64,000 bases of DNA, taken from the NCBI GenBank assembly GCA_964497975.1, contig CAZCFO010000003.1:6620-70619 (forward strand), given 5' to 3'. The notes below the pieces were generated by a model. It had not been told where the DNA came from and did not search any database. It worked only from the letters and a program-made list of their open reading frames with translations. Positions 3,278 through 50,783 of the stretch are shown here, in pieces (position 1 is the stretch's first letter; every line of letters starts with the position of its first letter). Source of the stretch: an uncultured Candidatus Peribacteria bacterium. GTDB taxonomy: Bacteria; Patescibacteriota; Gracilibacteria; Peribacterales; Peribacteraceae. The position numbers and the translations under genes are program-made.

Positions 3278-3967
3278 CTATGCCTCTGCCACGGGCGCCA
3301 GTTCCGTCTCTCCTCCCACTGCCGTTCTCCGGCGGCTGCCGGTCAATTCCGCCAGCCGGTCTTCCATGGCGGGCAGCGCGTCCCGGGGATGCACTTCGGT
3401 GAATCCCAGATGATAGGTTTTGCAGAGGAAAAGAAGCCTCTCCAGTTCTCCGGCATTCAGACCGTTGATCATCGTGTACGGGAGGTTCAGGGGGCCTCCG
3501 AGTTTTCGCTGATGCCGGAAGACCAGCACGTCCTCGATCTCCTTGAGCGAGAGCACCGGCGGCAGCGGGACGTCGCGTTCCGCGTTCACCGAAAAATGCA
3601 GCTCGTCGCCCATGTCCACGCCTTTTCCCGAATTCAGCCCGTCATGCAGAAAGTCCTTCATGATGGTGCCTGCGGCGGCCTGCACGACGATGGGTTTTCC
3701 TCCGAGCAGTTTTTTCGCTTCATCGCGGGACATCCTCAGGAGATATCCGAATGCAGCTTTTTCCCGCTGGTGATTCAGATTAAAGCGGCGTTCGCCATGT
3801 TCAAGGATCCATTGGAGCACGATCAGTTCAAATGCCACTTTCTCCCGCCCGTGCGAAATCCTGTCCGATACTTCCACCTGCACCATCGTTAGGCCTTCGG
3901 CTTCGTCGGCGGGACGGATGGCCGTTGTATCTTCACGCACGGGAGCAGGGGGCATGCGCTGCATCAT
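3278..3967 (-). CDS. hypothetical protein
   Basis: 229-aa ORF in the same orientation as tpiA and 21 nt upstream of it. No family recognised. Confidence 0.6.
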   Translation of the reverse strand: MMQRMPPAPVREDTTAIRPADEAEGLTMVQVEVSDRISHGREKVAFELIVLQWILEHGERRFNLNHQREKAAFGYLLRMSRDEAKKLLGGKPIVVQAAAGTIMKDFLHDGLNSGKGVDMGDELHFSVNAERDVPLPPVLSLKEIEDVLVFRHQRKLGGPLNLPYTMINGLNAGELERLLFLCKTYHLGFTEVHPRDALPAMEDRLAELTGSRRRTAVGGETELAPVAEA

Positions 3968-4095
3968 GCGAGTATTCTCGCTCCTGATGGGGCTGAAAAG
4001 AATTATCCTCAGGCGTCCTGTTTTTTGCTCTTGCCCTTGAGCTTAAAAAGAATGAAGGGACTTTCCGTTTCTCGCGCTTTCTGTATTCTGTAGAC

Positions 4096-4530
4096 ATGCG
4101 AAAGCCCCCGCGCGTCGCTCTCGGCACGGACCATGCCGGCTACAAGCTGAAGGAAATCATCAAAGCCCATCTGATGAAGGAGGGGATCGACGTTGTCGAC
4201 GAGGGGACGTTTTCGGAGGATCCCGTCGACTATCCCGTGTTCATTCGCAAGGCATGCGCGGTCACCCTCGAGCAGGACTGCCCCGCGGTCGTCTTCGGCG
4301 GAAGCGGCATCGGTGAGTCGATCGCGGCCAACAAAGTGCGCGGCATCCGCGCGGCCCGCTGCTGCACCCTCGAAGACGCGGAACTCTGCCGCAGGCACAA
4401 CGACGCCAACGTGCTCAGCCTCGGCGGGCGCATGCTCGATCCGGAACTCGCGAAAAAAATGGTCGATGCGTTCCTCTCCACGGAGTTCGAAGGCGGACGG
4501 CACGTCGCGCGGATCCAGGATCTGGAGTAA
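4096..4530 (+). CDS. rpiB: ribose-5-phosphate isomerase B
   Basis: GTDHAGYKLKE, GGSGIGESIAANKVRGIRAA, HNDANVLSLGGR motifs. 144 aa. Confidence 0.9.
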   Translation: MRKPPRVALGTDHAGYKLKEIIKAHLMKEGIDVVDEGTFSEDPVDYPVFIRKACAVTLEQDCPAVVFGGSGIGESIAANKVRGIRAARCCTLEDAELCRRHNDANVLSLGGRMLDPELAKKMVDAFLSTEFEGGRHVARIQDLE

Positions 4531-4560
4531 GCGGATCCCGCTGACCGGTACACTCTCTCC

Positions 4561-5478
4561 ATGGATGTCTTTCTGATCCTCCTCGGCAAACTCAGCCCCC
4601 TCTATCTGCTCATCGGACTCGGCGCCGCCGCCGAGCGGCTTCTGCGCGTCCCCAAGGAAACCGTCGCGCGGCTGCTCATCTATCTCATCGGGCCGCTGAT
4701 GATCTTCCACGGTATCGCGACCATGGAACTCGAATGGGGCCTGCTTCTGCTCACCCCCATCATCGTCCTCATGGGCGTCTGCCTGTGCCTGACGTTTCTC
4801 GCCATCGGCCGCCGCCTGTTTGACGCCGAAACCGCGCACCTTCTTGCATTCGGCGCCGGCATGGGCAACAGCGGCTACTTCGGCTTTCCTCTGGTCCAGG
4901 CGCTCTTTCCGCCGGGTCTCTTTCCCGTTGCGCTCCTCATCGACCTGGGCATGGGCATCTACCAGCACACGTTCGGCGCGTTCATCGCCGCCCGCGGAAA
5001 CCGCACGCTGCGGGAGAGCATCGTGACGGTCCTGCGGCTCCCGATGATCTACGCGATGCTGGCGGGACTCGCGTGGAATGTTCTGGGATTCGGCATGCCG
5101 GCGGTCCTCCACGATCTGGGGCTGCAGATGCGCGGCGCGTACATCGTGCTCGGCATGATGCTCATCGGCATGGGCCTCTCGGCCGTGCGCATCCGCGGCA
5201 TGGACACGCGTTACCTGTCGCTCGTGTTTGCGGCCAAATTCCTCGCCTGGCCGGTCGTCATGATCGCCTTCATCCGCCTCGATACGGCCTGGCTCCATCT
5301 GTTTTCCGGGCCGGTGCATCAGGTCCTCCTCTCGCAGGCCATCGTCCCCGTGGCCGCGAACGTCGTCGCTTACGCGTCGGAATTCCGCCTGCATCCCGCA
5401 AAAGCCGCGGCTGCGGTGTTCGCCACCACGGTGTTCGCCTGCGTTCTCGCGCCCGTCGCTGCCGCGCTGCTCTTTTGA
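4561..5478 (+). CDS. AEC (auxin efflux carrier) family transporter
   Basis: 305 aa, about 10 TM segments, N-terminus MDVFLILLGKLSPLYLLIGLG typical of AEC/malate-permease-like proteins. Confidence 0.8.
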   Translation: MDVFLILLGKLSPLYLLIGLGAAAERLLRVPKETVARLLIYLIGPLMIFHGIATMELEWGLLLLTPIIVLMGVCLCLTFLAIGRRLFDAETAHLLAFGAGMGNSGYFGFPLVQALFPPGLFPVALLIDLGMGIYQHTFGAFIAARGNRTLRESIVTVLRLPMIYAMLAGLAWNVLGFGMPAVLHDLGLQMRGAYIVLGMMLIGMGLSAVRIRGMDTRYLSLVFAAKFLAWPVVMIAFIRLDTAWLHLFSGPVHQVLLSQAIVPVAANVVAYASEFRLHPAKAAAAVFATTVFACVLAPVAAALLF

Positions 5479-5498: not shown

Positions 5499-6155
5499 AT
5501 GGCCGTCATGACTCAGGGGTCCGTCCTCATCACGCCTTCCATTCTCTCGTGCGATCTGGCGCGGCTGCAGCAGGAGGTCGACAGCGTCGAGGCCGAGGCC
5601 GACTGGCTGCAGGTCGACGTGATGGACGGGCATTTCGTGCCGAACCTCAGTTTCGGCGCGCCCGTGATCAAGTGGCTCAAGACGAGCCTTCCGCTCGATA
5701 TCCATCTGATGGTCAGCAATCCGCATGAGCGCCTTCCCGAGTTCCTCAAGATCGGCGTGAAGCACGTCACCTTCCATGCCGAAGCCGTCGCGAAGACCGC
5801 CGACCGCAGGCATCTCATCAGCGAAATCCGCTCCCGCGGAGCCACCGCGGGCATTGCGATCAACCCGGGGACGCCCGTCAGCGCCATTGAGGACGTCACG
5901 GACGACATCGATCTCGTCCTCGTCATGTCGGTCCATCCGGGCTTCAGCGGCCAGAAGTTCATCCCCGAAGTGCTCGAGAAAGTCAGCGCGCTCCGCGCGA
6001 AGTATCCCGCGCTCATGATCCAGATGGACGGCGGCATCGACGCGAAGAGCGCCGCGCAGTGCAAGAAGGCGGGCGCGGACAACCTGGTCGCCGCGAGCTT
6101 CATCTTCGGCGCGAAGGACCGGACGGCCGCCATCAACGCCCTCCGCGACGCATGA
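5499..6155 (+). CDS. rpe: ribulose-phosphate 3-epimerase
   Basis: ITPSILSCD, VDVMDGHFVPNLSFG, MSVHPGFSGQKF, MDGGI motifs. Start at 5499 (GGAGG 7 nt upstream) instead of the long antisense-extended ORF start at 5073. Confidence 0.92.
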   Translation: MAVMTQGSVLITPSILSCDLARLQQEVDSVEAEADWLQVDVMDGHFVPNLSFGAPVIKWLKTSLPLDIHLMVSNPHERLPEFLKIGVKHVTFHAEAVAKTADRRHLISEIRSRGATAGIAINPGTPVSAIEDVTDDIDLVLVMSVHPGFSGQKFIPEVLEKVSALRAKYPALMIQMDGGIDAKSAAQCKKAGADNLVAASFIFGAKDRTAAINALRDA

Positions 6156-6685
6156 AGGCATCGGTGTTCGCCAGCGGTCTCGTCAGCACGTCCGTCTTGC
6201 TGCTCATCGGCTGTGCCGGCCAGACCGCGGTTCCGCCGCCGCCGGCTCCGGTTGTGTCGTCGTCTTCCGTCCCGTCATCGTCGGCATCATCGGTGACATC
6301 ATCCGCACCTGCGACGACCGCCATCCATTTGAGAGGACCGGGCGGCCGTTCCGTGACCGTGCAGGCCGAACTCGCCCGGACCGACGCGGAGCGCTCCACC
6401 GGCCTCATGCACCGTACGCATCTGGATGCCGATGCCGGCATGCTCTTCGTCTTCGACGAGCCCCAGGAACTCTCGTTCTGGATGAAGAACACGCTGATTC
6501 CGCTCGATATCGCCTTCTTCGATGCCGCCGGCACATTCGTTTCCGCGACGAGCATGGAGCCCTGCAGAGCCGATCCGTGTCCCAGCTATCCCTCCTATGG
6601 CGCGGCGACGTATGCACTCGAAGTGAATGAGGGATTCCTGAAAAAGCACGGAGTGAGGGAGGGATGGATGATGATCCATGAGTGA
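6152..6685 (+). CDS. DUF192-domain lipoprotein with Ser-rich linker
   Basis: ATGA overlap with the rpe stop. Lipobox LLLIGC, poly-Ser/Val linker, then STGLMHRTHLDADAGMLFVF...FWMKNTLIPLDIAFFD (DUF192 signature). Confidence 0.8.
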   Translation: MKASVFASGLVSTSVLLLIGCAGQTAVPPPPAPVVSSSSVPSSSASSVTSSAPATTAIHLRGPGGRSVTVQAELARTDAERSTGLMHRTHLDADAGMLFVFDEPQELSFWMKNTLIPLDIAFFDAAGTFVSATSMEPCRADPCPSYPSYGAATYALEVNEGFLKKHGVREGWMMIHE

Positions 6686-13871: not shown

Positions 13872-15047
13872 ATGGAAAAGCGCGTCACGCTCTCGGTCGA
13901 ACCACTGCATGCCCGCATTCTGCCGTCAGCGACTCCCATGCCCATGCCCGCGCCGGAGCTCGCGCCCGCGCTCGTGTCGACTGTTCACGAGGAAACGATG
14001 GAGGTGTTGGGAGCCTCTGCGGAGGATGCATTCGAGGCGGAAGGCGTGGCGGATCTCAGCGGCGTCGAGCATCCGGAGGCGCTCTTTGAGGAGAGGCCCG
14101 CAAACCTGCACGTGGAGTTCGACGGTCACAACACCCTGACGCTGCACATGGATGAGTCCATCGCGGACGTGCATGTGTCCATCACGGTCGCCGGCGACGG
14201 TTCCATCACCGAGGCGGGCGATCACACGTTCATCCTCTCGCCCGAGGTCACGTCGGTGACGATCACCACGAAGGCCACGCTGCCCGGGTCCGCCGATTAC
14301 CCGGAGGAAGTGGAAGAGCTGTTTGATCACGGACACATGGTTTCCTTCACCGTCGCCACGCCCCACGATACTCCGTCCGAAACCGAACACGGCGCCAGCA
14401 TCGCGACGCATTCGCACGATTCCCATCACGAGGGTGAGGAAGAGGAAGAAGAAGAAGAAGAGGAGGAGGAAGAAGAGGAAGAAGAGCATCATCACGAGCA
14501 TGAACATGAGCATGTCCACGCGCACGAGCATGAGCACGCGCATGAACATGCGCACGAACATGCCCACGAGCACGCCCATGCGCACGAGCATGAACACCCG
14601 CACGAACACGGGCACGCGCACGCGGAGCACGAGGAGGAAGAGGAAGAAGAAGAAGAAGCACTCGTCGATCCCCCCGCCGAGAATCCGGCCGGGCGCCCGG
14701 ACGAGGATCCCGAGGATCGTCTCACGGATGGATTGGAAGAGGATGTCGGTGCATCTGCGCTTACCGTTGAGGAAATGACGCCCGAGGAACCCGTGGAGAT
14801 CGTGATTCCCGCGGGGTACTCCGTGCAGACGACTCCGGAGGCAAAAGCTGCCGCGATGCAGGAGTGGCTTGCCCGGGATGCCGGGGGCCCGTCCGCCGAA
14901 ACCCCCGTGTTCCTCCACACGGAGACGCTCGACGAGGCGCTCGCCCAATGGCTGGCCGCGGCGCAGCTTGCCGTCCTTCCCGCCGTCCCCGCGGAGCAGG
15001 AAGACGCCGATGCCCGCCGGAAAAAGTCGCGCAAGGCCGTGTCATGA
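13872..15047 (+). CDS. highly acidic His/Glu-repeat protein (putative metal-binding)
   Basis: 391 aa. Central tract HSHDSHHEGE(E)n HHHEHEHEHVHAHEHEHAHEHAHEHAHEHAHAHEHEHPHEHGHAHAEHE(E)n. No signal peptide seen. Confidence 0.75.
   Translation: MEKRVTLSVEPLHARILPSATPMPMPAPELAPALVSTVHEETMEVLGASAEDAFEAEGVADLSGVEHPEALFEERPANLHVEFDGHNTLTLHMDESIADVHVSITVAGDGSITEAGDHTFILSPEVTSVTITTKATLPGSADYPEEVEELFDHGHMVSFTVATPHDTPSETEHGASIATHSHDSHHEGEEEEEEEEEEEEEEEEEHHHEHEHEHVHAHEHEHAHEHAHEHAHEHAHAHEHEHPHEHGHAHAEHEEEEEEEEEALVDPPAENPAGRPDEDPEDRLTDGLEEDVGASALTVEEMTPEEPVEIVIPAGYSVQTTPEAKAAAMQEWLARDAGGPSAETPVFLHTETLDEALAQWLAAAQLAVLPAVPAEQEDADARRKKSRKAVS
14436..14657 (+). repeat. in-frame coding microsatellite-like tract: (GAR)n - (CAY GAR / CAY GCN)n - (GAR)n
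   Basis: Direct reading of gaggaagaggaagaagaa...catgagcacgcgcatgaacatgcgcacgaa...gaggaagaagaagaa. Confidence 0.8.
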
Positions 15048-25123: not shown

Positions 25124-26401
25124 ATGCAGAGCCCCCGCCTGCCGGCTGTTCTGGTGCGCCATCCCTGGATCACGGCGGCAGCGCTCGGTCTCGGGCTCAC
25201 GCTGTTCCAGATTTTCCTCGCGCTGCTCGTGCAGGCGGATTTTTCGCCGCACGGGTACCGCGGGCTCTTCCGGTGGGACAGCCTCCATTACGGGCGGATC
25301 GTCGAGAAGGGATACTTCAACAATCTGCCGCCGCTCATCGGCGACACGGATCCCAGCCGCGCGAGTTACCAGCGCAACACCAACGTCGCGTTCTTCCCCG
25401 GATACATCATCGCGGGACGCGCCGTCCGCGCCGTCACCGGATTCTCCATCCCATTCTCTCTCCTTCTCGCGGCCGCCATCGCCGCGTGGGGGTTCTGGAC
25501 GGAGCTCCTGCTCCTGCTGCGGCACTGGAACCTGTCCGTGTGGTCGCGCTTTGCGGTGACGGCGGCGGTCCTCGCGCATCCCACGGCCTTCTATCTGGTC
25601 GCGGCGTACTCGGAATCGCTCTTTCTGCTCGGGATCGTCGGATTTTTCTTTTGGGCGCAGCGGGGCGTTGCGTGCAACGCCCCTACAAAATTCGTGCCAT
25701 CGGGACTCCTGTGCGCGGCCGCGGCGATCGGGCACGGCATCGTCATGACGGCGACGCGCATCTTTGGGCTGCCGCTCTGCCTGTACCCGGTCATCGTTGC
25801 GGCTCTGCGACGCGGAAAAACCCCCGATCTCGTCCGTGCGGGAGTCATCGCGACCGGCGCAAGCCTGGGCGCGCTGCTCTTCTTCCTCTATTCCTCCGTC
25901 GCGCTCGGCAAGTGGAACCTGTACATGCTGACGCAGGTGAAGCAGTGGGGCCTCGTTCCCGATTACCTGTTCTTCCTGCACGCGCCGCTCAATCTCTGGC
26001 TGCCCGTCCCGCCGCCCGCGCTCTTCGTGAACAACGCCATCGGGCCGGTGGCGACATCGCTCACGCTCTGGCTGCTGCTCGCTGCATCGGCGGCGGAATT
26101 TTTCTCGGGCAAGCACACCGGCACCCGTCCCCAGCGCATCGCGCTCCTCGCCTGCGCGTTCATGAGTCTCTACGTCAGCCTGATTGCGCTGGCGAACGCC
26201 GGGATGCGCAGCATGGTCCGGTACGCGTTCATTCCCTACGTCTTCATCGTTCTGCAGCTGGCGCTGCTCGCCCGCGAACATGCGTGGACGCGCGGACGCC
26301 GCGTCATCGCGACCGGCGTGATCGGCGCGGCGCTCGTCCTCCTCTTCGTCACGCAGGTGATTCTCCTGGACATCTTCACCTCCGGCGGGTGGGTGGCATA
26401 A
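25124..26401 (+). CDS. PIG-V/GT76-like membrane mannosyltransferase family protein
   Basis: [16 protein letters not shown]...VAFFPGY matches the Mannosyl_trans2 signature (WD..HY..IA..GY...aFFP). Multi-TM. Confidence 0.75.
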
Positions 26402-26477
26402 CGTACAGCGGGCGCAGCGTGCTGCGCCCCTACCGGACATGCGCGCGAATGTCTGGACCCGAAAATCAAATCCCGTC

Positions 26478-27440: not shown

Positions 27441-27441
27441 T

Positions 27442-27468
27442 GTCATGGTGAGCCTGTCGAACCATGAC
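27442..27468. repeat. palindromic element GTCATGG-TGAGCCTGTCGAA-CCATGAC
   Basis: 7-bp perfect stem. Same loop as the GTCATCC/GGATGAC copies, but with the stem dinucleotide swapped in a compensatory way. Confidence 0.7.
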
Positions 27469-27476
27469 ATCTGAGT

Positions 27477-30190
<2,714 letters not shown>

Positions 30191-41556: not shown

Positions 41557-43014
41557 ATGAAATCCCGCCTCCTTCTTTCCGCAGTCTTCCTTCTCGGCCT
41601 CGGCGTCGGTGCGCTCGCGACCGTGGGTGCCGCGGACGTGCTCGGCTCCGCCGTCTTCAGCGACGTGCCCTCCGGCTCGTACTACGATGCTCCCATCGGC
41701 CGTCTCTACGGACAGGGGATCATCAAAGGATCTGGCGGCCGGTACAACCCCGCAGACTTTGTGACTCGCGCCGACATCGCCGTGATGCTCGATCGGGCGC
41801 TCAACGGCGGCGAAGGCGTGAGCAGCCGTTCCAGCAGCAGCCGCGCTCCGCGTTCGTCTTCCTCCAGCAGCAGCGTGTCGTCCTCGTCCAGCGTCAGCTC
41901 GGTTGCCAACATCGGCGCCGCGGGCGGATTCCGGTTCACGAACGAGAAGTTCAACTTCCCCGAGAGCGCGTCCAACGTGACCATCGGCGTGCAGCGCTAC
42001 GGCGGGACGGCTGGGAGCGTGACGGTGAAGTACCGGACGGTCGACGGGTCCGCCAAGAACGAGAAGCGGTACAACGCGAAGGAGGGGACGCTGTCGTTCG
42101 GCGACGGCGAGACGAACAAGACCATTTCGCTGCACTTCATCAACAACCTGATCGCCGATCCCAACGAGACGTTCACCATCGAGCTCTTTGAGGCCACGGG
42201 CGGCGCGGTCGTCGGTACCCCTGCGACCACCACCGTCACGATCCTGGACAACGACGGAGGCGGCGGCACCACGGTCTCGTCCTCGTCCTCGTCGTCCCTC
42301 AACTCCAGCGCCGCTGCCAGCGCGCCGGGCGGGGTGATCACCTTCAGCGCCTGGGCGTACGCGGTGGACGAGAAGGCCGGATCCATCACCGTCAACGTGC
42401 TGCGCAAGAGCAACAGCTCCGCGGCGGTCAACGTCGACTACGCCACGGTGGCGGGCTCCGCGACGGCCGGCACCAACTACACGCACACCGCGGGGACGCT
42501 CAGCTTCGCCGCCGGCGAGACCAGCAAGTCCTTCACGGTCCCCGTGCTCTCGCAGACGACCATCGACGGCAACAAGAGCCTCACGCTCAAGCTGACGAAT
42601 CCCACGGGCGGAGCCCTGCTGGATTCGCCGAGCTCCGTGACGCTCACCGTCATCGACAACGAAGCCGTGGGGGCGGCGGGCTCGGGCACGGTCATGCTCT
42701 CGACCTCCACGTACACGGCATCGCGCCGCGACGCGAGCGCGCTCATCACGGTCCATCGCCGCGGCAGCTACACGGGCACGGTCACCCTCAGTTACGCCAC
42801 CTCCGACAGCACGGCGATCGCGGGCACCAATTACACCGCCACGTCGGGCACCATGACCTTCGCGCCCGGAGAGTCGAACAAGTCGTTCACCATCCCGCTG
42901 CTCACCGCATCGTTCATCGGCGAGAAGAACGTGAACCTGACGCTCAGCAACCTGAGCGGCAACGCGGCATGGGGCACGCCCAACACCGGAGTGCTGACGA
43001 TCTACGGACAGTAA
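41557..43014 (+). CDS. S-layer-homology (SLH) domain protein with four Calx-beta domains
   Basis: Signal peptide, then SLH (FSDVPSGSYYDAPIGRLYGQGIIKG...VTRADIAVMLDRAL) and a poly-Ser linker. Four repeats follow of the type Y.T.DGSA.AG.DY....GTL.F..GET.K.F.......D..NE.F. Confidence 0.88.
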   Translation: MKSRLLLSAVFLLGLGVGALATVGAADVLGSAVFSDVPSGSYYDAPIGRLYGQGIIKGSGGRYNPADFVTRADIAVMLDRALNGGEGVSSRSSSSRAPRSSSSSSSVSSSSSVSSVANIGAAGGFRFTNEKFNFPESASNVTIGVQRYGGTAGSVTVKYRTVDGSAKNEKRYNAKEGTLSFGDGETNKTISLHFINNLIADPNETFTIELFEATGGAVVGTPATTTVTILDNDGGGGTTVSSSSSSSLNSSAAASAPGGVITFSAWAYAVDEKAGSITVNVLRKSNSSAAVNVDYATVAGSATAGTNYTHTAGTLSFAAGETSKSFTVPVLSQTTIDGNKSLTLKLTNPTGGALLDSPSSVTLTVIDNEAVGAAGSGTVMLSTSTYTASRRDASALITVHRRGSYTGTVTLSYATSDSTAIAGTNYTATSGTMTFAPGESNKSFTIPLLTASFIGEKNVNLTLSNLSGNAAWGTPNTGVLTIYGQ

Positions 43015-43015
43015 T

Positions 43016-43079
43016 CCCTCGATACGTTCGCATCTCCGATGCGAACTACCTGCCTGCCGGCAGGCAGGCTCGGGATGAC
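43016..43079 (-). repeat. GTAG-box hairpin element 1 (reverse orientation) with a nested 20-bp palindrome
   Basis: CCCTCGATACG TTCGCATC TCC GATGCGAA CTAC, then CCTGCCTGCCGGCAGGCAGG, then CTCGGGATGAC. Lies between the stop codon and the terminator. Confidence 0.75.
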
Positions 43080-43090
43080 ATGAGCATCCA

Positions 43091-43123
43091 GCCGGCGCTC
43101 CGCGAGGGGCGCCGGTTTTTTTT
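43091..43123 (+). terminator. rho-independent terminator
   Basis: GCCGGCGC-tccgcgagg-GGCGCCGG followed by T8. Confidence 0.8.
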
Positions 43124-43124
43124 G

Positions 43125-43168
43125 TTCCTCGTACGCTGCCGGCTCCGCCGGCAGCTACTCGGAATGAC
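43125..43168 (-). repeat. GTAG-box hairpin element 2 (reverse orientation)
   Basis: TTCCTCGTACG CTGCCGGC TCC GCCGGCAG CTACTCGGAATGAC. Confidence 0.8.
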
Positions 43169-43190
43169 AGTGCATTTTTTTAAAAGGTAA

Positions 43191-43235
43191 CCCCTCGATA
43201 CGAAACCTGCTCCGCAGGTTTCTACTCGGGGGCAT
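43191..43235 (-). repeat. GTAG-box hairpin element 3 (reverse orientation, degenerate GTCAT end)
   Basis: CCCCTCGATACG AAACCTGC TCC GCAGGTTT CTACTCGGGGGCAT. Confidence 0.75.
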
Positions 43236-43251
43236 CTGTAATAGTACGTGC

Positions 43252-43290
43252 GCCGAGTAGTTCAGCGCGGAGCGCTGAACGTATCGAGGC
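43252..43290 (+). repeat. GTAG-box hairpin element 4 (forward)
   Basis: GCCGAGTAG TTCAGCGC GGA GCGCTGAA CGTATCGAGGC. Confidence 0.8.
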
Positions 43291-43310
43291 GTTACTCTTT
43301 CAAACCCTAT

Positions 43311-43354
43311 GTCATTCCGAGTAGCCCGCTTCGGAGAAGCGGGCGTACGAGGAA
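43311..43354 (+). repeat. GTAG-box hairpin element 5 (forward)
   Basis: GTCATTCCGAGTAG CCCGCTTC GGA GAAGCGGG CGTACGAGGAA. Confidence 0.8.
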
Positions 43355-43391
43355 CGGATAATTCTGAGCCAGGCACGGGCGTATGAGCAAC

Positions 43392-43415
43392 AAAAAACCC
43401 TCTCATCCGAGAGGG
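43392..43415 (-). terminator. rho-independent terminator for the 43481-44389 gene
   Basis: On the minus strand: CCCTCTC-GGAT-GAGAGGG followed by T6. Confidence 0.75.
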
Positions 43416-43435
43416 CTCTTGGGGATTGAACGCCT

Positions 43436-43480
43436 GTCATCCCGAGTAGCTGGTGCCGGAGGCACCAGCGTATCGAGGGG
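43436..43480 (+). repeat. GTAG-box hairpin element 6 (forward)
   Basis: GTCATCCCGAGTAG CTGGTGCC GGA GGCACCAG CGTATCGAGGGG. Abuts the stop codon of the minus-strand gene. Confidence 0.8.
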
Positions 43481-44389
43481 TTAGTAGCAGTTGATGCCTT
43501 CCCTGCACGGGTACATTCCGTACACGTCCGTCGATGTGCGGCCGTTGTACCACGTGTTCTCGGTCCCGTAGACGGTGCCGCGCGGCGTCAGGCGGTAGCC
43601 GTAGTTGGGCGGCTGGACTTCCCCCAGGCGGCGGTAGACGGGCGGGTACCCGACCGGGCCGTAGATGCCGTCCTCGCGGTATTCGATCGCGTTGGAGCCG
43701 AAGCCGCTGGCCAGCACGCGGGTCGTCATGGAATCGAGGCTGCTTCCGGCGTGCGCCTGGAAGGCGAGCGTGCGGCCCACGGGGATGTTGCCGCGCACGT
43801 AGGCGTTTACCTGCACCGTGCGGCTGGACATGGGCGGCATCTGCATCGTGTTCCAGCGGACGTTCTTGCCGTCGCTGTAGCCGCCGAACGTGGCGCTTTC
43901 GAAGACCGTGTCGCTGTCGAGGTACGCGCGCAGGTCCACCGTGCGCGTCTGGCTGTCGTTGTTGCGGAGGTAGACGTTGTACGTGATGAGGCCGCGCGGG
44001 GCGACCGTGGTGGGCGACGACGAGACGCGGACCGTCACTTCGCCCGTGCAATCCGTCGTGGGGGTGCAGGCGTAGCGGTAACCGTACATGTTGCCGTTCA
44101 CCGTCGCGGACCAGGGCTGGCGGATGACCGGCTGCGCGTAGCGGACCGGCTGGCGGTACGTCGGTGCGACGTAGACGTTGCGGTAATCCGGGTCAGCGGC
44201 GTTGCGGTAGTCGATGTAGCTGTAATCGCTGCACTCGCCGCGGGCGTTCCAGGCATGGCAGACGAAGCCCGGGTAGGAGCGGAAGGGGAGCGACGCGTCG
44301 TACGCGAAGGCGGGGGAGATGAGAAGGGCGCCGGACACGATTCCCGTGAGGGAAGCGGCGATGCGGAGGGAGAGTGGACAATTTTTCAT
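43481..44389 (-). CDS. secreted protein with DUF11-like (conserved repeat) domain and Tyr/Pro/Arg-rich flanks
   Basis: Signal peptide MKNCPLSLRIAASLTGIVSGALLISPAFA. Core LITYNVYLRNNDSQTRTVDLRAYLDSDTVFESAT...VRW. Confidence 0.75.
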   Translation of the reverse strand: MKNCPLSLRIAASLTGIVSGALLISPAFAYDASLPFRSYPGFVCHAWNARGECSDYSYIDYRNAADPDYRNVYVAPTYRQPVRYAQPVIRQPWSATVNGNMYGYRYACTPTTDCTGEVTVRVSSSPTTVAPRGLITYNVYLRNNDSQTRTVDLRAYLDSDTVFESATFGGYSDGKNVRWNTMQMPPMSSRTVQVNAYVRGNIPVGRTLAFQAHAGSSLDSMTTRVLASGFGSNAIEYREDGIYGPVGYPPVYRRLGEVQPPNYGYRLTPRGTVYGTENTWYNGRTSTDVYGMYPCREGINCY

Positions 44390-44526
44390 AGGGATGATGC
44401 TATGCTGTACGTACGGCAACTGTCAATCGTTCTGTCAATCTCTCTGCGTCTTTCCGGAGGCGTGAATTTGCGCTCCGTCTTGCGAACGGGGGTAGAATTC
44501 GCCTGTTTCTTCCCCACCCCCTCTCT

Positions 44527-44847
44527 ATGTCCTGCGGATCCTGTTGCTCGTCGGGCTGCGGCCCGTGTCTCGTCTGCAAAATCGCCAGCGGCATCGTCGG
44601 GCTCCTCGTGACCGTCACGACCGTCGCGACGCTCATCGGCGTCTGGATGACGCACAACACCCCCGAGGGCTGGGCCTTCGGCACGCCGAACGGATCGCTC
44701 TCCGTGATCGCCTTCGTGGTCTCGGCCGCGGTCTGGCTGAAGATCTTCAAGAAGATGTGCGGCTGCTGCGGCAAGAAGGGCGGCGCCTGCAAGGATGGCG
44801 CCTGTACGGATGGCGGTTGCGGCGACGGCTCGTGCGGCGGCAAGTGA
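44527..44847 (+). CDS. Cys-rich 2-TM small protein
   Basis: MSCGSCCSSGCGPCLVCK, TM, loop, TM, then KKMCGCCGKKGGACKDGACTDGGCGDGSCGGK. 106 aa. Confidence 0.65.
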   Translation: MSCGSCCSSGCGPCLVCKIASGIVGLLVTVTTVATLIGVWMTHNTPEGWAFGTPNGSLSVIAFVVSAAVWLKIFKKMCGCCGKKGGACKDGACTDGGCGDGSCGGK

Positions 44848-44881
44848 GCCACGACGTGAATCGTGAATCATGAATCGTGAA

Positions 44882-44909
44882 GCGGTCCGCCTCGGCGGGC
44901 CGCTTTTTT
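44882..44909 (+). terminator. rho-independent terminator
   Basis: GCGGTCCGCC-tc-GGCGGGCCGC followed by T6. Preceded by direct units GTGAATCGTGAATCATGAATCGTGAA. Confidence 0.65.
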
Positions 44910-44913
44910 CGAT

Positions 44914-44993
44914 GTCATCCCGCGTGCCCGTCCGTAGCTCGGAAGAGCGAAGGCGGGAGTAGTTCGTGGCGGCCCACGAACGTAACGAGGGAC
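44914..44993 (+). repeat. GTAG-box hairpin element 7 (forward, with internal insertion)
   Basis: GTCATCCCG [34-nt insert] GAGTAG TTCGTGG CGGC CCACGAA CGTAACGAGGGAC. Confidence 0.65.
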
Positions 44994-45096
44994 AAACAGC
45001 GGCCCGGCTTCCCCCGTACCAGTCGCTGCGCTCCGGTACAGGACATGGCGCTACTCGGACACGTTCAAACAGCGGGGCAGCGCTGTCTGGAGTCTC

Positions 45097-45441
45097 CTAC
45101 TCCTTCTTCAATTTCGGGCGGACGAAGACTTCCCTCGCATCATCCTGATGCGTGAGGGCGACATAACTGGTGCCATTCAGGCCTATGTGCTTGACCTGGA
45201 TTTCACCTTCCTTGGCTTCGCGACTGACAAACGTTTTTGTGGTTCCGTCCGTGTAATCGATCCGGACGGATTTTTCTCCGATAGTGAAGCCGGAGACCGG
45301 AGTTGCGTTGGTCAACTCCGAATGCTGTCTCCAGGTTGTGATCGCCGCGAGGACGACCACGACAATAAGGGCCAGGATAACCGCATACTCGACGGCCGTC
45401 GGGCCGTCGTCGCGCTTCAAAAAAGAAAGAACTCGTTTCAT
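45097..45441 (-). CDS. Flp/Fap-type pilin-like protein with extended C-terminal domain
   Basis: MKRVLSFLKRDDG/PTAVEYAVILALIVVVVLAAI matches the Flp prepilin motif G/xxxxEY plus a hydrophobic helix. GGAG lies 8 nt upstream. About 75 extra C-terminal residues. Confidence 0.7.
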   Translation of the reverse strand: MKRVLSFLKRDDGPTAVEYAVILALIVVVVLAAITTWRQHSELTNATPVSGFTIGEKSVRIDYTDGTTKTFVSREAKEGEIQVKHIGLNGTSYVALTHQDDAREVFVRPKLKKE

Positions 45442-45715
45442 GGAAAAAACTCCGGTTGTTGCTGCCCCACATCGTCCTCCTTCCTTCGCTCTGCCCAGCG
45501 ACGGTCGAAAGACGATCGTGGGACGTTGCGGGTCCGCGGCCGGCAAACGGCCAGCCACGGTTTCCTCGGAATGAGGACGAGTGGGTCAAGGCGGTGGATT
45601 TTCAAAAAACAGTGGGTCATTCTGACCGCATGCCAACAAAATTCAATAGCAGATGAGCTCCGCACCGCTTTGTATCACGAAACGGCGAGGGCAGCGCCGC
45701 TTGGGGGAGTCGAGG

Positions 45716-46618: not shown

Positions 46619-46633
46619 TGTGGAACTCCTTGT

Positions 46634-46750
46634 GCCCCCACAGCATCCTCTTTCTCATTCACCTTGCCGGTGAATCGAAGATTCACTGTGGGCAAAATGA
46701 TGGTGCGTCGGCTTGGAGCCGACGTTCCCTCGAAAAAGAGGGTGCGTGGG
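46634..46750 (-). promoter_or_regulatory. structured leader element, copy A
   Basis: Shares the 5' arm CCCACGCACCCTCTTTTTCGAGG and the 3' arm GAGAAAGAGGATGCTGTGGGGGCA with copies B and C. The internal hairpins differ by compensatory changes. Confidence 0.6.
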
Positions 46751-46830
46751 GATGATGCGGTGATGACAAGGGCCAAAATCGCTGAGGGGCAGTCAGCGAG
46801 ATGTGGCATGGCGCGAGGCCCTGCCAAAAA

Positions 46831-47277
46831 TTATTTGATCGTCAGGGTGCCGGTTTGATCCGGCGCCCTTTTCAAAGTCAGAGACTTCGACTTGGTCGTC
46901 GAAATCCTGACTTCATCGGAGGTGACGTGAATGGAACTCACGTCACCCTCGAGATCGTGGCCTTCCTCAAGCCACGTGACCGTGATGCCCGGGCGGGGCG
47001 TCACGTCGTCGGGATAGCGGAGCTCCATCTGGAGCCCCGCGACGGTGTAGCGGCCCGCGGTCGTCGTGACCACGAGCCGGTTTTTTTTGAGCTGAACGGC
47101 CGTGATGGCTTTCCCTGCCATCTGCTGAGTTTTCTTTTCACCCGAGGCGTCGGTGGCGGTGACGCCGATTTGCATTCTGGGCGAACGTTCCTCCGTTGCC
47201 CAAAAGCCGATGGCCGTAGCGAGGCCAAGGAACGTGACGAGCATCAGGGCCGTCATACTTTGCGATCTGATAATCAT
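46831..47277 (-). CDS. membrane-anchored beta-rich protein, paralog B
   Basis: 148 aa. The end ...TTAGRYTVAGLQMELRYPDDVTPRPGITVTWLEEGHDLEGDVSSIHVTSDEVRISTTKSKSLTLKRAPDQTGTLTIK aligns along its length with the 47498-47944 product. Confidence 0.75.
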   Translation of the reverse strand: MIIRSQSMTALMLVTFLGLATAIGFWATEERSPRMQIGVTATDASGEKKTQQMAGKAITAVQLKKNRLVVTTTAGRYTVAGLQMELRYPDDVTPRPGITVTWLEEGHDLEGDVSSIHVTSDEVRISTTKSKSLTLKRAPDQTGTLTIK

Positions 47278-47295
47278 TAGATTCTCTCACTTTCT

Positions 47296-47418
47296 GCCCC
47301 CACAGCATCCTCTTTCTCATCGCCCTGCCCGGCGATTCAAAAAAGAATGCCTGAGGGCAAGACGTAATAGTTGCGTCAGCCTGCGGCTGACGTTTCCTCG
47401 AAAAAGAGGGTGCGTGGG
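47296..47418 (-). promoter_or_regulatory. structured leader element, copy B
   Basis: Nearly identical to copy C. Immediately 5' of start codon 47277. Confidence 0.6.
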
Positions 47419-47497
47419 AACGTGCGATGATGACAAAGGCCAAAATCGCTGAGGGGCAGTCAGCGAGATGTGGCATGGCGCGAGGCCGTGCCAAAAA

Positions 47498-47944
47498 CTA
47501 CTTGATTGTCAGGGTGCCGTATTGATCCGGCGTCCTAGTTAGGATCACGAGCTTCGACTTGGTAGTCAAAAGTGTGATTTCATTGGCGGTGACGCGAATC
47601 GAACTTACGTCACCATCCAAGGTGTGGCTTTGTTCAAGCCACCTTATCGTGACGCTCGTTCGCGGCGTCACGTCCTCGTGGTACTCGAACCGCATGTCGC
47701 GGCCCCCGATGGGGTAACGGCCGGCGGTGGTCAAGATGACCAGCCGGTGTTGCTCTACGCGAATACCGCTGATCGATTTCCCAGCGATAGGGTAGCGCGG
47801 ATCCGTCCGGTACCCTTCTGGGTCGATCCTGGGTATCACGACGATGTCATTGCCGCTCGGGTTGACGAGTGCCCAGTAGGCACAAGCCGCCGAAAGGCCG
47901 ACAAAAGTGACCGACAACACGATGACCAATGTTTTCTGCTTCAT
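47498..47944 (-). CDS. membrane-anchored beta-rich protein, paralog C
   Basis: Start at MKQKTLVIV (47944). The C-terminus ...LTRTPDQYGTLTIK matches paralog B. Confidence 0.75.
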   Translation of the reverse strand: MKQKTLVIVLSVTFVGLSAACAYWALVNPSGNDIVVIPRIDPEGYRTDPRYPIAGKSISGIRVEQHRLVILTTAGRYPIGGRDMRFEYHEDVTPRTSVTIRWLEQSHTLDGDVSSIRVTANEITLLTTKSKLVILTRTPDQYGTLTIK

Positions 47945-47960
47945 AGCTTTCTCGCTTTCT

Positions 47961-48081
47961 GCCCCCACAGCATCCTCTTTCTCATCGCCCTGCCCGGCGA
48001 TTCAAAAAAGAATGCCTGAGGGCAAGACGTAATAGTTGCGTCAGCCTGCGGCCGACGTTTCCTCGAAAAAGAGGGTGCGTG
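47961..48081 (-). promoter_or_regulatory. structured leader element, copy C
   Basis: As copy B, with one substitution that turns an A-U pair into G.U on the minus-strand transcript. Confidence 0.6.
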
Positions 48082-48114
48082 AGGGTGCTTGTTGATGACA
48101 ATGACCAAGATATT

Positions 48115-50022: not shown

Positions 50023-50056
50023 GCGCACGTCTTCGATGTGCGATTGGACGCGTCAT

Positions 50057-50494
50057 TCACACGGCCGAAATATCGCTTGTTTCCCACCGTCTGTTAGCGG
50101 ACGACCAGGGATATTCATCAGCAGACTCACACAAATTTTTTTTCAAAGGGTTCGCATGGATGTAATCGCGTGCGTCGGGAATGCTATGTACGCATCGGAT
50201 ATGAAAACGTCTTTGCCAAAGGGAATGAATGCCTGTTTGAAAAGACAGCCCCATTTTATAGATGCGCATGATATTGGAGATGGTTTCCGGCTCAGGGATA
50301 CGGACCAGCAGATGCACATGGTCGGGCATGATGACGAATGCGTACAGGAGGAATGGCCGCTGTTTCTGAACCCGATAGATGTGAGTTGCGGCTTCCTGGG
50401 CAAATGCAGGAGATGCAAAAAACGGACGTCGGCCGCGGGTGACGCTCGTCACCAGCATGGTCTCTTCATTTTGAATGAAATGGCGCTGGGTCAT
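50057..50494 (-). CDS. IS200/IS605-like Y1 HUH transposase, RAYT (REP-associated tyrosine transposase)-like
   Basis: LYAFVIMPDHVHLLV (HUH), RDYIHANPLKKNL (catalytic Tyr helix), YPWSS. Start taken at MTQRHF, though longer in-frame starts are possible up to 50740. Confidence 0.8.
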   Translation of the reverse strand: MTQRHFIQNEETMLVTSVTRGRRPFFASPAFAQEAATHIYRVQKQRPFLLYAFVIMPDHVHLLVRIPEPETISNIMRIYKMGLSFQTGIHSLWQRRFHIRCVHSIPDARDYIHANPLKKNLCESADEYPWSSANRRWETSDISAV

Positions 50495-50783
50495 GACGTC
50501 ATCATTTCTTCTGAAACTGTCTTCCAGCAGATCGGAACTGTGCGATGGAAATATGCAAATGGGGGTTTTATGCATTGGCATGGGAAAGCAGTCGGTTCCA
50601 TGGAGCAGTGGAACGCCACGGCCGCACGTCGAAGACGTGCGGCTGACTGCCGACCCCATTTCCGCGGCTTTTTCATTGCCCAAACCCCCGTATAACCCTA
50701 TAAAAGGGCGCTCCAATTTGTCCGGAGACCCTATTAACACTATGCAACAATTCTGCTATAATAGCAATGAACCGCTCACACCC

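Follow-up and report, generated by a model that had tools for sequence, protein, structure and literature searches.

GTAG-box units of Candidatus Peribacteria: two-helix repeats with conserved boxes and variable stems that resemble REP elements

A stretch of 64,000 nucleotides from contig CAZCFO010000003.1 of an uncultured Candidatus Peribacteria bacterium (assembly GCA_964497975.1), a member of the CPR (candidate phyla radiation), was analysed in full and is referred to here as the window. It carries seven copies of what we call the GTAG-box unit, a repeat of about 48 bases that forms two helices, both of which covary strongly. We read these units, with moderate confidence, as miniature palindromic repeats that populate Candidatus Peribacteria in the manner of the repetitive extragenic palindromes (REPs) and bacterial interspersed mosaic elements (BIMEs) of other bacteria, the folded GTAG-bearing strand being the form that a putative trans-acting protein would read.

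All seven copies proposed in a first-pass annotation of this sequence were found where it had placed them, both by direct reading and by a hairpin scan (Table 1), and each follows the pattern TGTCAT(C/T)CCGAGTAG, an 8-nt stem, GGA, the complementary 8 nt, and CGTA(T)CGAGG(G/A)A(C/T). The stems are also as it had listed them, perfectly complementary in all seven copies and closed by C-GGA-G in six. The core CCGAGTAG-N8-GGA-N8-CGTA has five matches in the window when 0.12 would be expected from shuffled sequence, and an unfiltered covariance-model scan of the whole 64 kb returned exactly copies A to G and no further full-length copy. The nested inserts that had been noted are real: in copy A a palindrome of 19-20 nt (43050-43068) lies between CCGAG and GTAG, and in copy G about 34 nt (44923-44956) are inserted in the 5′ half. 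A further, degenerate minus-strand copy is less secure, its 5′ box being exact but the remainder too degraded to obtain a model score.

The major revision to the first description concerns the “conserved flanks” of the hairpin, which pair with each other to form a second, outer helix (P1). The unit begins with an unpaired TGTCA, followed by P1 (AYCC/GGRT), which is 4-5 bp long, reaches 8 bp (TGTCATCC/GGATGACA) in some copies and is sometimes extended to TGTCAT/ATGACA. P1 is separated from the inner helix P2 by an internal loop whose 5′ strand is GAGTA and whose 3′ strand is GTA(N)CGA. P2 has 9 bp (G + 8 bp + C) and is capped by a GGA loop, for which GAA, AGA and CGA are rare variants. The two flank subfamilies described previously are actually a single covarying pair in P1 (ATCCC/GGGAT versus ATTCC/GGAAT) together with an optional nucleotide. 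Because MAFFT misplaced that nucleotide in the full alignment of 136 sequences, the model and the pair counts were derived from 83 ungapped sequences, in which 94.6% of helix cells are paired and the covariation score is 0.707, compared with 0.18 for shuffles and 0.10-0.16 for slid partners. Changes on both sides were seen in eight of the nine P2 pairs and in the variable P1 pairs: beyond the fixed CC/GG of P1 the next two positions covary (C-G, U-A and G-C at one; U-A, C-G and G-C at the other), and even the P1 C-G pair fixed by our search switches jointly to T-A in 12-13 further copies recovered with a relaxed pattern (TCGAG...CGAGA). The same two helices were predicted independently by RNAalifold. 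P2 on its own, with 97.9% of its cells paired, is a short palindromic stem-loop of the REP kind, and the GTAG on the 5′ side of its foot, invariant in exact-pattern copies, where the pattern requires it, is kept in nearly all copies found with the relaxed pattern.

The first-pass annotation had staked its case on further copies being found in a genome-wide scan, and hundreds more were found. A search with CCGAGTAG-N8-GGA-N8-CGTA-N0-1-CGAGG, which makes no demand on pairing, across one genome for each species gave at least 108 loci. Among the matches listed, about 90 were from metagenome-assembled genomes (MAGs) of Candidatus Peribacteria, a class in Peregrinibacteriota, and the other carriers were Anaerolineae and MAGs assigned to Rhodospirillaceae, Reyranella, Bacteroidota and Latescibacterota; two Streptomyces matches had unpaired “stems” and were dismissed as chance. 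Our covariance model (R1) had 226 matches in 645 kb of selected loci, again mostly from Peribacteria. High copy number and mostly extragenic location are both characteristic of REPs, and there are 7-8 copies in the 64 kb of the window, the copies of the family lying in intergenic regions. A search of viral contigs for possible carriage by phages gave no matches to the element. In the literature searched there was nothing specific on the motif, nor any paper joining repeats of the REP type, or their transposases, with the CPR or Patescibacteria.

What has been conserved in these units is the pairing and the boxes rather than the stem sequence. There are 92 different 5′ stem arms among 173 copies, with a mean pairwise Hamming distance of 4.2 out of 8, and 90-98% of stem cells are paired, so that the original claim that only the structure is kept is borne out. 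That the stem differs in every copy is partly a sampling effect, as all seven window stems have a relative with no more than one position different in another genome: TTCGCATC of copy A has only a one-mismatch relative, and exact matches to the inner-unit stems AAACCTGC and TTCAGCGC are found in other genomes, those to the former again in inner units. About 40% of copies have one non-Watson-Crick pair, mostly G·T, and between related genomes with 94% identical flanks we found T-A pairs replaced in place by C-G through double changes. There is also a lineage, that of stem AAAGCCGC, in which a G·A mismatch at stem position 4 has been inherited across several genomes. Unpaired stems at the frequency expected from drift, which had been put forward as the outcome that would count against structural conservation, were not seen: copies with diverged boxes (relaxed pattern) retain 7-8 of their eight stem pairs, in lower-scoring copies it is the length of the stem (5-10 bp) and the loop that vary and not the boxes, and no tail of unpaired, decayed copies was found among either.

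Could each hairpin have been made anew rather than inherited? The first-pass annotation raised a mechanism that regenerates hairpins. This could be templated snap-back synthesis, producing a perfect, novel stem in every copy, and the seven window stems, all perfect and all different, are what such a process would be expected to leave. It would not be expected to leave non-Watson-Crick pairs in some two-fifths of the copies elsewhere, a mismatch handed down through several genomes, stepwise compensatory changes at resident sites, or stems that are related by descent and shared between different genomes. Such a mechanism is unneeded and fits poorly, and we consider it very improbable.

A second question is which strand, and which nucleic acid, has been selected to fold. 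On the GTAG strand the non-Watson-Crick stem pairs comprise 62 G·T and 2 A·C, when strand-symmetric mutation would produce the two in a ratio of 1:1, and the GTAG strand has the more stable fold in 129 of 136 copies. The excess is present both where the adjacent long open reading frame (ORF) would transcribe the complement (G·T:A·C of 16:0) and where it would transcribe the GTAG strand (10:0). Among isolated copies downstream of genes 13 are sense, 20 antisense and 6 between convergent genes, and adjacent genes would transcribe the complement in 57 copies versus the GTAG strand in 25, orientation counts that are approximate as the genes were called as crude stop-to-stop ORFs. These data point to selection on the single-stranded fold of the GTAG strand, with DNA more likely than mRNA. 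The occurrence of both orientations downstream of genes, and of copies B-E outside both terminators in the window, argues against selection on an mRNA structure.

The placement of the copies in the window also modifies an earlier claim, that they sit in 3′ untranslated regions (UTRs) between stop codon and terminator. Given the positions of the two intrinsic terminators (Table 1), copies A and F are inside 3′ UTRs, and B-E are placed between the two terminators and so beyond each. Copy A abuts with its 3′ end the TAA stop codon (43012-43014) of the Calx-beta/SLH gene, copy F abuts that of the convergent DUF11-like gene (TTA on the plus strand, 43481-43483), and both are oriented such that the mRNA carries the complement of the GTAG strand. 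The units do not themselves resemble intrinsic terminators: they are not followed by a T run, and separate canonical terminators stand adjacent to them.

The main alternative, which we regard as possible but unlikely, is that the unit is a structured RNA, either a protein-binding or regulatory motif or a small RNA (sRNA), formed in transcripts of the GTAG direction with a binding loop like an S-turn or loop E. Strong covariation of both helices and frequent wobble pairs are typical of RNA families, AGUA opposite G(U)A beside P2 could form such a loop (the likeness to a bulged-G motif is our own reading only), copies A and F are within 3′ UTRs, the spacers upstream of the outer array units are A/T-rich, and a related short hairpin pair has a sub-threshold match to the annotated sRNA family RF02901. 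Yet it is the complement that would be transcribed more often, with the G·T bias on the GTAG strand in both transcription classes, and array B-E is outside both terminators. The elements showed no sigma-70-like promoter, and Rfam 15 gave no gathering-score match in the window or in 16 related loci, nor anything relevant over 42900-45200 at E up to 10. Presence, absence and flipped orientation at orthologous sites, described below, fit mobile DNA better. Among narrower candidates, a match to Acido-Lenti-1 in one related locus (L064) was unrelated to the element, and the arrangement CCGAGUA-stem-GUA, reminiscent of the hammerhead core CUGAUGA-stem-GAA, was rejected as such since it departs from that core at key positions, lacks a stem I and has no Rfam match. 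A sponge of CsrA-type GGA hairpins was set aside, as it would not account for the conserved boxes and in a given transcript half of every array would appear as TCC loops.

The arrays have an ordered architecture. In the four-unit module an outer (-) unit is followed after 26-28 nt by an inner (-) unit, then after 6-8 or 20-27 nt by an inner (+) unit and after another 26-28 nt by an outer (+) unit, and we found nine complete and about 13 partial modules together with six head-to-head dimers, comparable to the inverted dimers of REPs and to BIMEs. As a single strand the window module (copies B-E) can be folded into one long branched hairpin. The BIME-like arrays in both orientations that had been claimed are therefore confirmed, with the addition that their spacers are fixed.

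Units have been gained and lost at orthologous sites. In the set of related loci (numbered with the prefix L), L058 carries about 150 nt of elements that are lacking at the orthologous site of L106, a dimer in L050 is lacking in the orthologous region of L043, a four-unit array in L044 is not present in L093, and an element pair in L083 is not present in L033. L022 and L067 have single units at the same site in opposite orientation and with different stems, and L025 has a short sister hairpin, a form described below, where L072 and L018 have full units. There is also a preferred point of contact: in 17-18 copies, A and F included, the 3′ end of P1 exactly abuts the complement of a convergent gene's stop codon, with other distances spread at about one copy per nucleotide, and the comparison of L050 with L043 shows that the stop codon is native. 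Several copies contain other palindromes, or the loop motif of the short family, within P2. The Anaerolineae version is a conserved inverted repeat of about 170 nt, built from one nested pair and present in unrelated genomic contexts (L004, L016, L024, L034, L037, L054, L080, L088, L092); its left arm is a GTAG-box unit with an internal-loop stem, CGCGGAAC-GGA-GTGGAGCG, and its right arm has the motif GTGAGCGNAGCGAAAC in place of P2. A GGTGCG after the Anaerolineae unit that had looked like the start of a group II intron proved on alignment to be the paired arm of this inverted repeat.

As a separate observation, a palindrome of the form CCTGCC...GGCAGG is nested in GTAG-box units of three genomes (window 43050-43068, L048 5594-5661, L029 6871-6938), and it is possibly another mini-repeat, one whose landing sites are the single-stranded parts of the units.

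The closest known kind of element is the GTAG-tagged REP, especially of group 3 (the S. maltophilia SMAG/REPSm repeats; Di Nocera et al., 2013; Corneloup et al., 2021). In published GTAG REPs the stem is 6-13 bp and the loop 2-3 nt long, G·T pairs are frequent and subfamilies carry alternative complementary residues in the stem; the repeats form inverted dimers and have a preference for sites downstream of convergent or unidirectional ORFs (PMC3733652). In S. maltophilia the group-3 REP has GTAG, a perfect 8-bp stem and a 3-nt loop; its cleavage requires GTAG and the first G of the loop, takes one strand only as substrate, tolerates complementary swaps in the stem and is abolished by a stem mismatch (PMC8266576). 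The inner half of our unit matches this REP closely, in that GTAG is followed at once by a perfect stem of 8 bp whose 3-nt loop begins with G, and the match offers a mechanistic reason for a structure that is kept while its sequence is free. Shared too are the alternative complementary stems and frequent G·T pairs, the extragenic positions, mostly near stop codons after convergent or unidirectional ORFs, the inverted dimers and clusters, and strand specificity, which in REPs is that of recognition and in our units is seen as the G·T excess. The REP reading in the first-pass annotation was thus broadly right in citing GTAG 5′ of a hairpin, both orientations, arrays and nesting, although its statement that classical REPs keep the stem was too strong, as published GTAG REPs have alternative complementary stems (PMC3733652) and for a group-3 RAYT (REP-associated tyrosine transposase) the sequence of the stem matters little (PMC8266576).

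There are nevertheless clear differences from GTAG REPs, as in the GTAG-box unit GTAG lies in an internal loop, owing to the enclosing helix P1, and there are extended conserved boxes (TGTCA, CCGAG and CGTA(N)CGAGG), far greater stem diversity (92 arms in 173 copies), a CPR host, and a genome whose RAYT is flanked by another hairpin. The BIMEs of E. coli and the REPINs of Pseudomonas are likewise ordered alternating arrays of two unit types with fixed spacers that can fold, as a single strand, into a long branched hairpin, whereas in the GTAG-box module the order is outer-inner-inner-outer, the arms share boxes and not stems, and a flanked RAYT was not found. The ends of IS200/IS605 transposons and of their miniature inverted-repeat elements (MITEs; PATEs) are hairpins read as single-stranded DNA (ssDNA), as is proposed here, and have like the GTAG-box unit a 5′ tetranucleotide beside the hairpin foot and no obvious target-site duplications; unlike IS200/IS605, the unit is a single 48-nt piece with no distinct left and right ends and no detected replication-strand bias. 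The new features are P1 as an enclosing helix, the length of the conserved boxes, how far the stems have diversified, the module of four units, a host from the CPR and the lack of a flanked RAYT.

Integron attC sites follow the same logic, with structure kept and sequence variable, a strand-specific fold, and conserved unpaired and variable paired bases, a parallel that has been discussed for REPs (PMC8266576). It is hardly credible, however, that the units are recombination sites of this kind: on direct reading they have no RYYYAAC/GTTRRRY core sites, both orientations occur in one array only 6-30 nt apart rather than in a uniform orientation with cassette ORFs between them, and there was no integrase among the neighboring ORFs checked.

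A number of observations weigh against a REP-like reading, and the foremost of these concern the transposase. The window does encode a genuine RAYT homolog, as had been proposed, at 50057-50494 (-): it matches the NCBI REP-associated tyrosine transposase model with 93.1 bits (cutoff 80), the one solved structure related to it is that of E. coli TnpA-REP (4ER8, E 9e-13), and the HUH and Tyr motifs are conserved among 18 homologs. The proposed partnership with the GTAG-box unit is not supported, since this gene has flanking hairpins of its own, inverted copies of TNAG-CCGCACGTC-TTC-GACGTGCGG with a 9-bp stem at 50024-50042 and 50623-50641. These hairpins, of the type TNAG-CCGCA(C/G)GTC-TTC-GAC(G/C)TGCGG (in the window CGCACGTC-TTC-GACGTGCG), differ from the GTAG-box unit and are rare elsewhere. 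The orthologous RAYT of the Peribacteria MAG SICS01 (L109), whose genome is rich in GTAG-box units, has the same type of flanking hairpin, with a compensatory C-G to G-C stem change relative to the window, at 5829-5855 and 6440-6640, the downstream side being a five-fold tandem array of a unit of about 42 nt that contains the hairpin. No RAYT was found by tblastn in 108 element loci (0.7 Mb around elements) and no GTAG-box copy in 85 RAYT-family loci (405 kb, from five homolog contigs and 80 metagenome loci). With its own hairpins at the RAYT, and the unit in 0 of 85 RAYT loci, the arrangement expected of REPs, a RAYT flanked by the same REPs, does not hold for the GTAG-box unit, and no enzyme is tied to it. 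Further, the conserved part of the unit is, to our knowledge, much larger than that of any described REP, and its internal loop, rich in purines, has the look of an RNA motif. Replication-strand bias is seen in ssDNA transposons of the IS608 type; isolated GTAG-box copies, assigned by local GC skew, were divided 25 versus 39 (p=0.10), which is not significant.

The last point of this kind is the four-unit array itself, for which the window, L096 and L099 share one syntenic position, with boxes identical and stems and linkers unrelated. (The window is syntenic with L096, L098 and L099, with 78-82% nucleotide identity in typA.) This may reflect purifying selection on resident copies or repeated refilling of the site, and the array suggests the former, a host function rather than pure selfish turnover. 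Taken further, this would make the units resident, host-selected DNA sites that are no longer mobile, for binding by a nucleoid, gyrase or integration host factor (IHF)-type protein, as has been proposed for the BIMEs of E. coli. The wholly diverged stems and linkers around intact boxes in three genomes, the fixed architecture and spacers of the arrays, and the failure to find a cognate transposase at either the element loci or the RAYT loci are all consistent with this idea. On the other side, many orthologous sites are not alike in whether they are occupied, in orientation or in the type of element, and a double-stranded binding site would not yield a strand-specific G·T excess of 62:2. We judge a purely resident role to be distinctly improbable.

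We return, then, to REP/BIME-like repeats, and to how they might work. The unit would fold on the GTAG strand only, most probably in single-stranded DNA, with P1 outside, P2 inside and the conserved internal loop between them. A trans-acting protein would read the unpaired conserved bases by sequence and the helices by shape, much as HUH/Y1 enzymes (RAYT and the TnpA of IS200/IS605) read GTAG with a hairpin. If the helices are read by shape, the stems can drift through G·T intermediates and compensatory changes as the boxes stay fixed. Units are gained and lost at orthologous sites, often landing exactly against the stop codon of a convergent gene, and they form the four-unit array and accept further hairpins in their single-stranded parts.

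The window contains shorter relatives of the unit (Table 1). These sister hairpins, TGTCATCC-TGAGCC(Y)G(W)CGAA-GGATGACA, have the outer stem and the GAG...CGA frame in common with the GTAG-box unit and are without P2; in the window and in Peribacteria loci the loop is TGAGCGTAG(T)CGAA in a 7-8 bp stem. The inverted sister pair straddles the stop codon at the 3′ end of a NAD-dependent DNA ligase ORF (27494-29809, -). The loop motif TGAGCGTAG(T)CGAA (L058, L069, L001, L012, L053) matches the core of the mitochondrial Bpu elements of Cycas and Ginkgo, AAGGTTATCCCTTTCCTGAGCGTAGCGAAGGGAAGG (PMC8297867), and also the consensus of Aggregatibacter sRNA 41 (RF02901), the latter at a sub-threshold 27.7 bits. 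These “TGAGC...CGAAG” hairpins share their loop with the sister form, and they differ from the GTAG-box unit in having neither P2 nor the GTAG foot. A motif match of 13-16 nt suggests that the sister form may be homologous to the organellar elements. It is feasible to extend this to a single self-nesting superfamily of GTAG-box units and sisters, in which a stem would enclose a YGAG...CGAR loop that is both the recognition motif and, as single strand, the favored landing site of further hairpins. It would be mobilized by a single-strand-specific enzyme other than a flanking RAYT and have members in CPR bacteria, in Chloroflexi and Proteobacteria, and, as the Bpu elements, in the mitochondria of cycads and ginkgo, but we think this scenario quite unlikely.

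Other repeats in the window are of separate interest. A second, more classical GTAG repeat, GTAG-GGGCG(TT/CA)G-CACG-C(AA/TG)CGCCC, is present at 25663-25687 (-) and 26410-26433 (-), the two copies differing by a compensatory stem change, and a fully palindromic version, GTAGGGGCGTAGCATGCTACGCCCCTAC, is found in L098 (near position 905 in the reverse complement of 3480-4600). Between the Flp-like gene and typA, 46630-48111 is taken up by three direct repeats, each of about 665 bp and 78-92% identical, a stretch that is absent from the syntenic L096 and L099 and whose inner ORFs have no Pfam match. Periodic repeats of 12 and 18 nt (GAGCATGAACAT..., GAAGAAGAGGA...) form a long run over 14415-14665 and probably encode or mirror a low-complexity protein segment.

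Table 1. GTAG-box units, sister hairpins, terminators and neighboring genes in the window (bits, covariance-model score).
Feature	Position	Strand	Details
Copy A	43015-43080	-	stem TTCGCATC; 34.5 bits (model positions 12-42)
Copy B	43123-43169	-	outer array unit, TGTCATT...CGTACGAGGAA; stem CTGCCGGC; 59.2 bits
Copy C	43189-43236	-	inner array unit, without GTCAT; stem AAACCTGC; 58.2 bits
Copy D	43246-43293	+	inner array unit; stem TTCAGCGC; 58.4 bits
Copy E	43310-43356	+	outer array unit; stem CCCGCTTC; 59.9 bits
Copy F	43435-43482	+	stem CTGGTGCC; 66.9 bits
Copy G	44913-44993	+	7-bp stem TTCGTGG, CGGC loop; 24.8 bits
Degenerate copy	about 45012-45059	-	exact CCGAGTAG at 45052-45059, GTACGG-like tail, 3′ half decayed
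Intrinsic terminator of plus-strand gene	43090-43125	+	between copy A and four-unit array
Intrinsic terminator of minus-strand gene	43388-43413	-	between copy F and four-unit array
Calx-beta/SLH protein gene	41557-43014	+	neighboring gene
DUF11-like protein gene	43481-44389	-	neighboring gene
Small Cys-rich protein gene	44527-44847	+	neighboring gene
Flp-like protein gene	45097-45558	-	neighboring gene
Short sister form, inverted pair	27441-27505		TGTCATCC-TGAGCCTGACGAA-GGATGACA and partner
Short sister form	29247-29277	-	inside NAD-dependent DNA ligase ORF, adenylation-domain region

CPR bacteria have small, streamlined genomes, and if the density of units in the window were typical, more than a hundred copies would be expected in a genome of about 1.3 Mb. 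The units are a clean natural data set (92 stems, a wobble asymmetry of 62:2 and compensatory changes in two helices) which separates the bases that a protein reading a single strand must contact from those that need only to pair. In practical terms, the units break MAG assemblies and cause spurious ORFs and spurious “sRNA” calls. That the RAYT and the dominant GTAG repeat of the same genome are separated bears on how REP-like repeats spread and persist without a cognate flanked transposase.

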